Part shown: positions 35,041-37,425 of the stretch, piece after piece
How the letters are laid out: every line of letters begins with the position of its first letter
How positions within the stretch are numbered: the first letter of the stretch is position 1
From: Shigella phage Sf18
Direction: 5' to 3' (one strand)
Sequence record: MF158044
Length of the DNA: 64,000 bases
Program-made: the position numbers and the translations under genes
The notes under the pieces: model-generated
The model's input: the letters and a program-made list of their open reading frames with translations, nothing else
Databases searched by the model: none
What the model was told of the DNA's origin: nothing

Positions 35041-35069
35041 ATAAAAAAGGCTCCCGAAGGAGCCTCTTA
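35041..35069 (-). terminator. internal rho-independent terminator after endolysin gene
   Basis: On minus strand AGGCTCC-ttcg-GGAGCCT then TTTTTTATTT. Confidence 0.55.
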
Positions 35070-35074
35070 ATCTA

Positions 35075-35545
35075 CTATTTTGGATAAACAGCGTCAAGGT
35101 AAATCTTGGCTTCCAAACTACGTCTATTTTGTAGACCCTTGGAAGTTACTTTTTGACCATTCACTGTAATCTTGTTCCACCACTGCATAGCTTCTGCACA
35201 ACCAGCTTTGTTACCAGCATTGTGACGCTTGATAAAAGTTGAATCCTGCATAGCACCGATGCCAATGTTGTAAGTCTCTACAACAAGTGCGTCAAATTCG
35301 TTCTGCGTAGTTGGAACCTTAATTGCTCTGTTTACTGCACCTACATAGTTCTCAACATCTGCAAGGAGATATTGTTCAGCTTGCTCGGCAGTAATCTTCA
35401 TCCCCATCGTAACAGGTCTTCCGTTGATACGAATTGTACCATAACCAATTGTAGGGATTCCAGCAGAGTCTTTATAGGCTTCTAAACGAAGCCCTTCAAA
35501 GAACTTAATGGCTTCTAAGCCTTTACTTGAGAGTTGCATTATCAA
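35075..35545 (-). CDS. endolysin, T4-lysozyme-like muramidase (GH24)
   Basis: Motif EGLRLEAYKDSAGIPTIGYGT matches the catalytic region of T4 lysozyme family. Confidence 0.9.
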   Translation of the reverse strand: MIMQLSSKGLEAIKFFEGLRLEAYKDSAGIPTIGYGTIRINGRPVTMGMKITAEQAEQYLLADVENYVGAVNRAIKVPTTQNEFDALVVETYNIGIGAMQDSTFIKRHNAGNKAGCAEAMQWWNKITVNGQKVTSKGLQNRRSLEAKIYLDAVYPK

Positions 35546-36426
35546 CCTCCTACTGCGTTAATAACCACCTTGGCAGATTGGGATGTGATTGAGCCACCTA
35601 CACCAGTTACAACACAAGAGTAAGTACCTTCATCATCAGCTTTAGAAGTCGGTGTCTTTTCATATGTTGCAGATGTTGCTGAAGGGATATCTACATCATC
35701 TTTCTTCCACTGATAACCAGTTGCACCAGTGGCTACGATGCTAAGGGTGAGTGTATCTCCCTCTGTAATCTCTTGGTTAGTAGGTTGCTGTGTAATCACA
35801 GGCAGTGCATTCACAGTTACTGTGGCAGCGTTGGAATTAACACTTGAGCCACCTTCACCAGAAACTACACAGGTGTATGCGCCAGCATCAGTAGGGACTA
35901 CGCCATTCTTAGTATATGTTGCAGAGGTTGCTCCAGAGATGTTTGATGCACCTTTCTTCCACTGATAACCAGTTGCACCAGTAGCAACAACTGAAAGTGT
36001 AAGTGTTCCACCCTCGTTAACAGTTTGGTCAGTTGGCTGCTGTGTAATAACTGGAGGTGTGATTGCATCCTTCAACTTTGCATTAAGCATGGAGAAAGGT
36101 TTAACCCTTGCCAACCATTCACAATAAACTGTGTCAACATCCTTCCCATTGATGATTGCATACTGCAAGTCCATGAAGAAGTCAGCAGTCCTCATCTGAG
36201 CACCAACTGAATATAAAAGTTCTTCACTAAATGGAACTGTGTAGTCTGGTGTGTAATTGAAGTCAGTAACTTCTGGAATATCAGACTCAGGCCACGGTGA
36301 GCTATATGTCAGAGGCAGAACGGCCTCTTGATACTTTCTGAAGTCGTATCTTTTGCCAGCTTTAACATTCGCTACAAAGTCTTTAACGAACTCTTTAAAA
36401 TCTGGATATGTCTTTGCTTTAATCAT
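35542..36426 (-). CDS. protein with N-terminal domain paralogous to next gene plus two tandem Ig-like domains
   Basis: Two ~85-aa repeats (PVITQQPT...GATGYQWKK...TVN) typical of Ig-like beta-sandwich repeats. Confidence 0.5.
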   Translation of the reverse strand: MIKAKTYPDFKEFVKDFVANVKAGKRYDFRKYQEAVLPLTYSSPWPESDIPEVTDFNYTPDYTVPFSEELLYSVGAQMRTADFFMDLQYAIINGKDVDTVYCEWLARVKPFSMLNAKLKDAITPPVITQQPTDQTVNEGGTLTLSVVATGATGYQWKKGASNISGATSATYTKNGVVPTDAGAYTCVVSGEGGSSVNSNAATVTVNALPVITQQPTNQEITEGDTLTLSIVATGATGYQWKKDDVDIPSATSATYEKTPTSKADDEGTYSCVVTGVGGSITSQSAKVVINAVGG

Positions 36427-36791
36427 TTCTTAGCCTCTAATCTTGCATTTAGTCTAAAATAACCTTTGTGCTGCGGTGAAACATCACCTACAACAACTCC
36501 GTCAATCTTATAGCCTTTACCCATCACATATTGAATATCCATCAAAAATGTACCAAGACCAACGATATGAAACATTGGGTAAAGAAGTTCTTCAGTATCT
36601 GGTAGAGGAATTTTAGGTGTGTATTCGGAATATGTTTCGGTAGGGTTGATATCCTTCTCAGGCCATTTGCTATCACGCCATGTTAAGGGTGTCGGAAGTA
36701 CATCATCAAGATTATACCTGTCACCTTCTTGAACACTTTGGACATAAGATTGTAGGAAGCAATAAAAGTCTTTTCCACTCTTTGCCTTCAT
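36423..36791 (-). CDS. hypothetical protein, paralog of N-terminal domain of 35542-36426
   Basis: Alignable by eye: shared RY, WPE.DI, YTP, ELLY, FFMD.QY, LNA.L positions. Confidence 0.45.
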   Translation of the reverse strand: MKAKSGKDFYCFLQSYVQSVQEGDRYNLDDVLPTPLTWRDSKWPEKDINPTETYSEYTPKIPLPDTEELLYPMFHIVGLGTFLMDIQYVMGKGYKIDGVVVGDVSPQHKGYFRLNARLEAKK

Positions 36792-36834
36792 TATCTATCC
36801 TTAACAAATAAAAGGGGCTTTCGCCCCATAAAAC

Positions 36835-37425
36835 TTAAGCCATAGTCTTAAGCATGTTTTTAAGTTTTTTGAGATTCATTGTCTCATCCAACTTAAATCC
36901 AAATCCATTGACGTACTCAATGAAATCAGATTTCTTACTCAGAGATAACGCATAGTTCATGTCGAAGTCATTACTTGGAGTGGACTCTGGAGAGGTGTTC
37001 ACATCGAAAGAAATCTCTGTGGAAGTATCTTCAGACTCTCTGAGGTTATCAATCACAACACATGTGTAGTTTGCTGGAGAGAATGATGTTGAACCAGCTA
37101 CATAACTGTATTTAGCATTGTGGATAAGATTTGAGAATACTTTGAAGAATGTTTCTGAATCATGACACACCAGTTTAAATTCACTATTAGCACCTAAAGA
37201 CATAAGTGAATATGGGCTTTCACCATCAATGTTATAATCTGGGTTCATTGACTGAACAGTAACACGCATCAAGTTATTTGCAATTGTTTTCTGTTTAAAT
37301 GAATTAGGTACGTAGTGCATACCTCTTTCACATTGATTGACCAACTCTTTAAGAAGGTCATCAGAATATGGTGAAGTGATTGATACAGACCCATCACCAT
37401 TATAATTAAAACTCACGTTTAACAT
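36835..37425 (-). CDS. hypothetical protein
   Basis: 196 aa ORF. Confidence 0.45.
   Translation of the reverse strand: MLNVSFNYNGDGSVSITSPYSDDLLKELVNQCERGMHYVPNSFKQKTIANNLMRVTVQSMNPDYNIDGESPYSLMSLGANSEFKLVCHDSETFFKVFSNLIHNAKYSYVAGSTSFSPANYTCVVIDNLRESEDTSTEISFDVNTSPESTPSNDFDMNYALSLSKKSDFIEYVNGFGFKLDETMNLKKLKNMLKTMA

Follow-up and report, generated by a model that had tools for sequence, protein, structure and literature searches.

A probable Hoc-like capsid decoration protein and its Ig-less paralog beside the endolysin gene of Shigella phage Sf18

Introduction

In Shigella phage Sf18, the endolysin gene stands next to two genes whose products share an N-terminal domain, the longer product continuing into two tandem immunoglobulin (Ig)-like domains. 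The locus raises the question of what the two proteins do and whether their position beside an endolysin bears on their function. It was analysed within a stretch of 64,000 nucleotides (sequence record MF158044), referred to as the window, and the region shows 100% identity to Shigella phage Sf17, a Mooglevirus of the Ounavirinae, whose gene designations are used here. An earlier reading made from the sequence without database searches had described the paralogous pair and the Ig-like repeats, had suggested surface adhesion as the usual task of such modules and had called their placement beside the endolysin unexplained.

Identification of the 294-aa protein as a probable capsid decoration protein

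Both open reading frames of the sequence-only reading were confirmed, and both lie on the minus strand. The longer one (35542-36426; Sf17 FDJ00_gp018) encodes a polypeptide of 294 amino acids, orthologous to Sf14 gp20 and to the Hex-Dec protein of phage Bas63 (JohannRWettstein), and is hereafter called Hex-Dec. [quoted passage not shown] Searches with phmmer matched the protein to the Sf14 gp20 chain 9c2d_S (E 4.6e-185) and the Bas63 chain 9ncf_S (E 1e-257), with residues 1-120 identical to 9c2d_S; between the shared N-terminal domain and what is modelled of PDB 9C2D chain S, identity is 99-100%. The AF2 model had a pLDDT of 91 and its CapBD superposed on 9c2d_S with a TM of 0.95 and an rmsd of 1.3 Å. 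The shared N-terminal domain, for which structure prediction had been put forward as a check, is the capsid-binding domain.

The remainder of the protein is Ig-like by several measures. Pfam matches were obtained to Ig_3 (1.5e-19), Ig_2 (9e-15) and I-set (9e-14), each as two stretches, with Ig_3 and Ig_2 placed on residues 124-205 and I-set on residues 209-283. This part was modelled as a beta-sandwich with pLDDT >90, and Foldseek matched it to the tandem I-set Ig domains of Robo, MuSK and titin (E 1e-12 to 1e-14). Between the two repeats (residues ~122-207 and 208-294) identity is 61% (E 1e-31), and they are acidic (pI 4.4). The DNA repeat of about 255 bp seen in the sequence-only reading was recovered as direct repeats, of 153 nt with 75% identity and of 47 nt with 77% identity, at spacings of 252 and 255 bp.

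Sf14 gp20 and Bas63 Hex-Dec have been solved by cryo-EM (PDB 9C2D/9C3A chain S and 9NCF chain S) as monomeric Hoc-like decoration proteins on the heads of Felix O1-like phages, in which the CapBD sits as a plug in the middle of pentamer-proximal hexamers of a T=9 capsid and the Ig-like domains point outward (PMC11821841; PMC12609058). Sf14 gp20, which was also found by mass spectrometry, is anchored through Arg79 and Arg107 to Asp221 of the major capsid protein, and the same study gives the number of Ig-like domains in both Sf13 and Sf17 as two (PMC11821841). Hex-Dec is confined to facet-edge hexamers and carries one to four Ig-like domains across the genus (PMC12609058), and the true 3-fold hexamers are left empty because the geometry of Asp221 differs there (PMC11821841). 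Felix O1 Gp36, a further ortholog, has been detected in virions (PMC3185647).

Two further capsid proteins are encoded in the same window. The gene for the major capsid protein, to which Hex-Dec would bind (51143..52246, plus strand; phmmer 9c2d_A, E 1e-250), lies about 14.7 kb from the Hex-Dec gene on the opposite strand, and residue 221 of its product is an aspartate. Before it, at approximately 50734..51111 (plus strand; from a frame translation), is the gene for a beta-tulip trimeric protein, the other decoration protein of the same capsid, which is the ortholog of Sf14 gp33 (phmmer 9c2d_J 4.6e-74, 9ncf_J 2.3e-73). Given the identity of the CapBD and the retention of Arg79, Arg107 and Asp221, the Sf17 protein would be expected to occupy the same capsid position as its orthologs. 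Its CapBD would bind as a monomer in the middle of each of the 60 pentamer-proximal (quasi-3-fold) hexamers, with both arginines held by Asp221 of three major capsid protein subunits, and the two acidic Ig-like domains would form a short fibre protruding from the head.

These data bear directly on the current annotation. The label of phrog_3995, to which the protein belongs, is 'tail protein', and GenBank, RefSeq, PHROG and UniRef entries of the family read 'tail protein', 'major tail protein' or 'tail fiber protein'; the Ig region is indeed similar to the Ig modules that decorate major tail proteins in siphoviruses (phrog_158, phrog_853, phrog_3575). However, that similarity is restricted to promiscuous Ig domains, the best stretches starting at residues 96-128, and the tail tube and sheath of Sf14 and Bas63 are the products of other genes. 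The placement of 9C2D and 9NCF on capsid hexamers refutes a tail location for the orthologs, and we give practically no credence to one for the 294-aa protein.

Comparison with related decoration proteins

Sf17 and Sf14 share CapBD residues 1-120, Arg79, Arg107, the capsid Asp221 and the gene neighbours, with the paralog upstream and the endolysin downstream, but differ in the number of Ig-like domains (two in Sf17, three in Sf14), and the Ig region is too diverged for megablast alignment. Between the two phages, the CapBD considerably exceeds the flanks in synonymous divergence, which suggests allele exchange. Bas63 has the same order of an N-terminal CapBD and a string of Ig-like domains within the same three-gene cassette; its CapBD is 87% identical (TM 0.95) and binds exclusively facet-edge hexamers, whereas its protein is longer, with four Ig-like domains in 460 aa. 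The 252-255-bp repeats (~75% identical) are a likely substrate for gain and loss of Ig units, relatives carrying one to four.

T4 Hoc resembles Hex-Dec in sitting as a monomer in the middle of hexamers and in combining a small globular capsid-binding domain with an acidic Ig string that extends from the head; it is dispensable, and adhesion or clustering has been suggested as its role (PMC10385173). In contrast to Hex-Dec, Hoc has its capsid-binding domain at the C-terminus and occupies all hexamers rather than the pentamer-proximal ones only. No Hoc chain was among the sequence or fold matches of the CapBD, and the 'Hoc-like' PHROG matches to the 294-aa protein cover residues 119-288 only, that is, the Ig part. 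The order of an N-terminal capsid-binding and a C-terminal Ig-like region is also that of T5 pb10, although pb10 has a single Ig domain. The Ig sequence is similar to two chains named 'Decoration protein', 5lxk_A (2.9e-9) and 8zvi_a (1.2e-9), which we take to be T5 pb10, and the CapBD had no match to any pb10 chain in sequence and fold searches at the thresholds used.

By analogy with T4 Hoc, the Ig fibre presumably mediates weak adhesion to surfaces or mucus, or controls virion clustering. The adhesive role suggested in the sequence-only reading agrees with what the structural papers propose, it being a proposal there too; both papers call the role and essentiality of the fibre unknown (PMC11821841; PMC12609058). 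Of that reading, the paralogy, the Ig fold and the DNA repeat stood, and the virion association of the orthologs is borne out by cryo-EM and mass spectrometry (PMC11821841; PMC12609058; PMC3185647), while the already solved identity as a capsid decoration protein had been missed.

The gene cassette and the neighbouring endolysin

Directly downstream of Hex-Dec, the endolysin gene (35075..35539, minus strand) encodes a complete single-domain GH24 enzyme (Pfam Phage_lysozyme, E 1.8e-39) annotated as endolysin in Sf17. Its ATG at 35539 is 2 nt past the Hex-Dec stop and its GGAGG ribosome-binding site lies within the last Hex-Dec codons. At the other end, the stop codon of the 122-aa open reading frame overlaps the Hex-Dec start as ATGA; the 122-aa frame has its own ribosome-binding site and is translationally coupled to Hex-Dec. 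The three-gene cassette is closed downstream of the endolysin by a terminator-like hairpin with a 10 bp stem (35045..35068, minus strand), and just upstream of the paralog is a terminator-like GC hairpin with a T-run (36814..36827, minus strand) that is conserved at the same place in REP6. A scan for sigma-70 promoters yielded no more sites than in shuffled controls.

Upstream of the cassette lies a conserved gene for a 196-aa protein (36835..37425, minus strand; phrog_4034), which precedes the CapBD gene or genes in all relatives examined and had no PDB, Pfam or NCBIfam match. A distant homolog of this protein carries the tag 'Phage_Inh_N (faint)', which would have pointed to a pairing like that of hoc and inh in T4, but the tag was not reproduced by hmmscan at E<=10 with five members, and this candidate was rejected.

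Such tight packing, with a 4-nt overlap, a 2-nt spacer, a lysin ribosome-binding site inside the preceding gene and hairpins on both sides, might be taken to mean that the 294-aa and 122-aa proteins are cell-wall or peptidoglycan accessories of the adjoining endolysin, the more so as the adjacency of Hex-Dec and endolysin is kept even in Erwinia and Pectobacterium ounaviruses. Yet co-occurrence with the endolysin, which the sequence-only reading had proposed to examine, proved to be conserved synteny throughout the Ounavirinae, and it is no pointer to a cell-wall function. Two independent cryo-EM structures show orthologs with an identical N-terminal domain bound to hexamers of the capsid, and mass spectrometry detects such orthologs in virions; the endolysin is complete as a single-domain enzyme, and no membrane segment was found in the paralog (maximum Kyte-Doolittle 1.22). 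In addition, RT-PCR of Felix O1 placed ORF36 and ORF37 (Hex-Dec and the paralog), both maximal late at 60 min, and the lysin of the same cassette, scored maximal at 25 min, in different expression classes, crude as these are. Nothing was found in support of a peptidoglycan-binding or lysis role of either protein, and we regard an accessory function as highly improbable. The endolysin neighbourhood would rather be the inherited gene order of a late cassette, with no functional link to the cell wall.

The 122-aa paralog

The shorter open reading frame (36423..36791, minus strand; Sf17 FDJ00_gp019, phrog_4463) has orthologs in Sf14 gp21, Felix O1 ORF37 and Bas63 0125. In BLASTP it was 37% identical to the 294-aa protein over 123 columns (E 6e-17), and the motifs on which the sequence-only reading had based the paralogy (RY, LP..LT, WPE-DI, YTP, EELLY, F-MD-QY, LNA-L) were all found. 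The relationship was also seen in reciprocal PHROG matches (phrog_4463 on the 294-aa protein, 4e-16; phrog_3995 on the 122-aa protein, 2e-14) and in a sequence match to 9c2d_S (E 1.7e-12). Pfam, NCBIfam and PDB sequence searches returned nothing besides the two Hex-Dec chains. The AF2 model (pLDDT 72, pTM 0.73) had 9c2d_S and 9ncf_S as its only fold matches (TM 0.69 and 0.68, E about 8e-6). The protein stops where the CapBD does, without the Ig-like array and with no Pfam match. A profile search of the whole library gave 14 family representatives, all phage-like, and none had a fusion partner hinting at another function. We consider the gene to be an old tandem duplicate probably derived from the CapBD alone; in a neighbour-joining tree the deep bootstrap values were 10-39%, with which the duplication cannot be dated relative to the Erwinia and Pectobacterium lineages.

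In the nine orthologs aligned, the equivalent of Arg79 is a glycine (in an invariant GLG) and that of Arg107 is Gln, His or Arg, a pattern also found in the divergent paralog P0097. Arg79 is missing as well in some distant Ig-bearing members of the family (P0102, P0105), hence its loss alone is no proof of lost capsid binding. The part of the paralog that corresponds to the capsid-facing Arg79 loop is very conserved, and net charge and pI showed no consistent difference between paralog and CapBD.

The absence of the anchoring arginine could also indicate that the 122-aa frame is a functionless, decaying remnant, that of an old Hex-Dec allele of which recombination left only the 5' end. The dS of Hex-Dec far above both flanks is a sign of allele replacement, the paralog evolves ~2x faster than the CapBD at non-synonymous sites, and decay is visible in REP6 and mio. 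Against this, dN/dS was 0.06-0.16 in 21/21 pairwise comparisons with dS up to >2, from which the paralog is judged to be under purifying selection. The frame is unbroken and does not vary in length in about 232/252 ounavirus records (~92%) and in four deep lineages, one at only 48% identity. It adjoins Hex-Dec in Felix O1, Bas63, Moogle, SUSP2, Sf14, pEC-M719 and a divergent 87-kb metagenomic ounavirus. Together with its own ribosome-binding site and a transcript that peaks late, these observations make a remnant unlikely. The 122-aa frame is a real gene, late-expressed, under purifying selection and coupled to Hex-Dec.

A selected CapBD that is expressed late with Hex-Dec and retains the conserved loop segment might be a third decoration protein, stably bound in low copy number to the 20 3-fold hexamers or to the pentamers and averaged out on the symmetry axis; the 3-fold hexamers are free of Hex-Dec, and a paralog without those arginines could in principle fit that site. 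The asymmetric 4.5 Å map of Sf14, however, has protrusions at quasi-3-fold hexamers only (PMC11821841). The paralog is mentioned in neither structural paper (PMC11821841; PMC12609058), and gp21 is neither listed for the Sf14 virion nor named in the Sf14 supplement (PMC11821841). Felix O1 Gp37 is not in the published virion protein list, a negative result for a 14-kDa protein (PMC3185647), and VpaE1 gp40 is not among the VpaE1 proteins detected beyond the Felix O1 set, its absence from the full list being inferred. The gene has also been naturally lost in about 8% of genomes, including those of REP6 and mio. In our view the paralog is not a stable decoration protein, and we rate such a role as very unlikely.

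Our best guess, tentative and with odds short of even, is that the paralog acts off the mature virion. It may associate transiently with hexamers of the capsid protein or with Hex-Dec while the head is being assembled and could, for example, keep hexamer centres or Hex-Dec unengaged until expansion. A less probable version, which we hold to be doubtful, is that it is a capsid-directed factor sharing labour with Hex-Dec, either by filling hexamer centres unavailable to Hex-Dec, in the 20 hexamers on icosahedral 3-fold axes or in procapsid hexamers before expansion, or by gating the time and place of Hex-Dec binding. Roles of this kind would be hidden by icosahedral averaging and could escape shotgun virion proteomics.

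Significance

Taken as a whole, we assign a probability of roughly 88% to the reading in which the 294-aa protein is a Hoc-like hexamer-centre decoration protein, the 122-aa protein an old CapBD duplicate and the adjacency to the endolysin inherited. The structure and capsid location of the 294-aa gene product and its two-domain state in Sf17 are already published and ordinary, and their practical value here is the correction of a widespread 'tail protein' annotation.

The remaining point of interest is the small Ig-less CapBD copy encoded just upstream, a stand-alone capsid-binding domain long kept under selection, expressed together with the decoration protein and unseen on the virion. It offers a cheap handle on the choice of site and the timing of monomeric hexamer-centre decoration proteins, and it is relevant to users of Hex-Dec as a phage-display scaffold because it could compete for sites. 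If the paralog does share labour with Hex-Dec, it would be a new case of paralogous site-specific hexamer plugs on a T=9 capsid, or of an assembly factor that serves a decoration protein specifically.

Identity and structure of the Ig-bearing protein

The region analysed is 100% identical to that of Shigella phage Sf17, a Mooglevirus of the Ounavirinae, in which the long gene (35542-36426, minus strand, 294 amino acids) is FDJ00_gp018, a 'tail protein', and the small gene (36423-36791, minus strand, 122 amino acids) is FDJ00_gp019, a 'hypothetical protein'. The sequence-only reading had proposed that the two are paralogs aligning position by position, and this was confirmed: aligned to residues 2-119 of the longer protein, the 122-aa protein showed 37% identity (E = 6e-17), all motifs listed were present, and each family's PHROG profile also matched the other family's member. 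Equally borne out were the two tandem Ig-like domains, as the C-terminal 170 residues form two Ig-like units (Pfam Ig_3, 1.5e-19; Ig_2 and I-set) with 61% identity to each other, and the DNA repeat of about 255 bp, which was recovered as direct repeats 252 and 255 bp apart (75–77% identical). Such repeated DNA would explain the variable Ig copy number; Sf13 and Sf17 have two Ig-like domains only (PMC11821841).

Searches against the PDB identified cryo-EM chains 9c2d_S (Sf14 gp20; E = 4.6e-185, residues 1-120 identical) and 9ncf_S (the Bas63 ortholog 'Hex-Dec'; E = 1e-257). A template-free AF2 model (pLDDT 91) agreed with the modelled part of 9c2d_S (TM 0.95, 1.3 A); its N-terminal domain is the solved capsid-binding domain (CapBD) and the rest matches tandem I-set Ig domains. 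[quoted passage not shown] Its N-terminal 118 residues fill the middle of the quasi-3-fold hexamers, those proximal to the pentamers, and Arg79 and Arg107 make salt bridges with Asp221 from three subunits of the capsid protein; at the true 3-fold axes the hexamers lack gp20 because the Asp221 geometry there differs (PMC11821841). Both arginines are present in the long protein, Asp221 is present in the major capsid protein (51143-52246, plus strand; E = 1e-250 to 9c2d_A), and a second, beta-tulip decoration protein is encoded at about 50734-51111 (plus strand). The long protein agreed with the Hex-Dec/gp20 family in every testable feature. Published virion proteomics covers its orthologs, Sf14 gp20 having been seen by mass spectrometry (PMC11821841) and Felix O1 Gp36 having been found in virions in 2010, when it was mis-called 'major tail protein' (PMC3185647). 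Based on the PDB matches, the Sf14 structure and the presence of Gp36 in virions, the Ig-bearing protein is a known capsid decoration protein of solved structure. The database label 'tail protein' is wrong, since the cryo-EM orthologs sit on the capsid.

Following the published mechanism, the CapBD would plug the hexamer centre via Arg79 and Arg107 to Asp221, with the Ig fibre, which is acidic (pI 4.4), projecting outward; by analogy with T4 Hoc (PMC10385173), we infer that the fibre may have an adhesive or clustering role. The protein works in like manner to T4 Hoc and T5 pb10. However, the domain order of Hoc is reversed and its capsid-binding fold is unrelated, so the long protein is not a Hoc family member. 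A search of 1.84 billion protein clusters gave just 14 representatives of the CapBD, making this a very narrow family. A distant relative on a metagenomic contig, P0104 (L014 6001-6462), is a lone 153-aa CapBD protein in the same gene slot with a Lys/Ser-rich low-complexity tail in place of the Ig domain, and may be an Ig-less decoration protein.

In pairs of close phages, synonymous divergence was compared for the CapBD codons (36067-36426) against two relatives' loci (L006 and L008) and for both flanking genes. Between Sf17 and Sf14, dS was 0.24 in the CapBD versus 0.055 and 0.073 in the flanking genes, and between Moogle and Sf14 it was 1.07 versus 0.23 and 0.20. The CapBD protein sequences of Sf17 and Sf14 are identical, and the Sf14 Ig region gave no alignment to Sf17 by megablast. 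The CapBD dS far above that of its flanks and the non-aligning Ig region suggest that lineages exchange the whole Hex-Dec gene by recombination.

Gene organization and conservation

The stop codon of the small paralog overlaps the start of the long ORF (ATGA), and 2 nt separate the end of the latter from the ATG of a GH24 endolysin whose GGAGG ribosome-binding site lies within the final Hex-Dec codons. With terminator-like hairpins directly upstream of the small-paralog ORF (36827-36814) and directly downstream of the endolysin (35068-35045), the three genes form a compact cassette. The endolysin start at ATG 35539 (154 aa) is common to all annotated relatives; a mechanical ORF list places it at TTG 35545 (156 aa). 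The head module is encoded on the other strand, 14.7 kb and 25 tRNA genes away from the cassette; the Felix O1 authors had commented on this separation before (PMC3185647). A gene for a 471-aa DUF2828/vWFA protein (38493-39908, plus strand; annotated 'RNA-binding protein') diverges from the cassette and is followed by the tRNA block (40075-45003, plus strand). A gene encoding a 196-aa protein (phrog_4034; 36835-37425, minus strand) always precedes the CapBD gene(s), distant ounaviruses included. This protein had no match in Pfam, NCBIfam or PDB; one of its distant homologs carried a faint precomputed 'Phage_Inh_N' tag that could not be reproduced.

Felix O1, Bas63, Moogle, SUSP2, Sf14 and pEC-M719 all keep the arrangement 196-aa gene, CapBD gene(s), endolysin, as do a divergent 87-kb metagenomic ounavirus, Erwinia Kolesnikvirus, Pectobacterium Wc4-1 and a further metagenomic lineage. 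The placement beside the endolysin, which the sequence-only reading had left unexplained, is accounted for as gene order inherited in a late cassette; nothing points to a cell-wall role. Felix O1-like cassettes (~76% DNA identity) also occur in GU169904.1 ('Staphylococcus phage SA1', 141771-144269) and OK283618.1 ('Listeria phage LPML1'), entries that are probably chimeric or mislabelled.

The small paralog

The AF2 model of the small paralog (pLDDT 72, pTM 0.73) matched only the two solved CapBDs in the PDB (TM 0.69 and 0.68). No membrane segments were found in it. Its dN/dS was 0.06–0.16 in 21 of 21 pairwise comparisons (Hex-Dec CapBD, 0.02–0.09; endolysin, 0.03–0.19), with dN about twice that of the CapBD. 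It is a real gene, and the selection data contradict the improbable reading of a functionless remnant. It occurs in ~232 of 252 ounavirus records (~20 lack it) and stays next to Hex-Dec even in a lineage with only 48% identity; Erwinia and Pectobacterium lineages have a single CapBD gene and no small paralog. Phages REP6 (L004 2306-2497) and mio (L005) are natural knock-outs, in which the 5' and 3' ends of the gene can still be recognised in a remnant of ~190 bp but the start codon and a central stretch of ~180 bp are gone, indicating that the gene is dispensable for plaque formation. Small and long clades were each monophyletic (100% bootstrap), in a tree that does not fix the age of the duplication.

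In Felix O1, RT-PCR signals of ORF36 and ORF37 (the small paralog) were both highest late, at 60 min; Gp37 is missing from the list of proteins detected in virions (PMC3185647), and the VpaE1 virion proteome adds only gp54, gp58 and gp68 to that list. The small paralog is also absent from both structural papers (PMC11821841, PMC12609058). Stable low-copy decoration of the empty 3-fold hexamers is contradicted by these maps and proteomes and is very unlikely. At the position of Arg79 the small paralog carries an invariant Gly, inside the highly conserved HIVGLG(T/R)FLMDIQY, and at that of Arg107 it has Gln, His or Arg. Tentatively, at a probability of about one in three, the small paralog would act off the virion in head assembly, through transient contact with capsid-protein hexamers or Hex-Dec. 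As the Ig-bearing protein is a published decoration protein, the main finding was already known; what is new is a conserved, Ig-less CapBD paralog, undescribed within the open-access literature, a modestly interesting case that could readily be tested.
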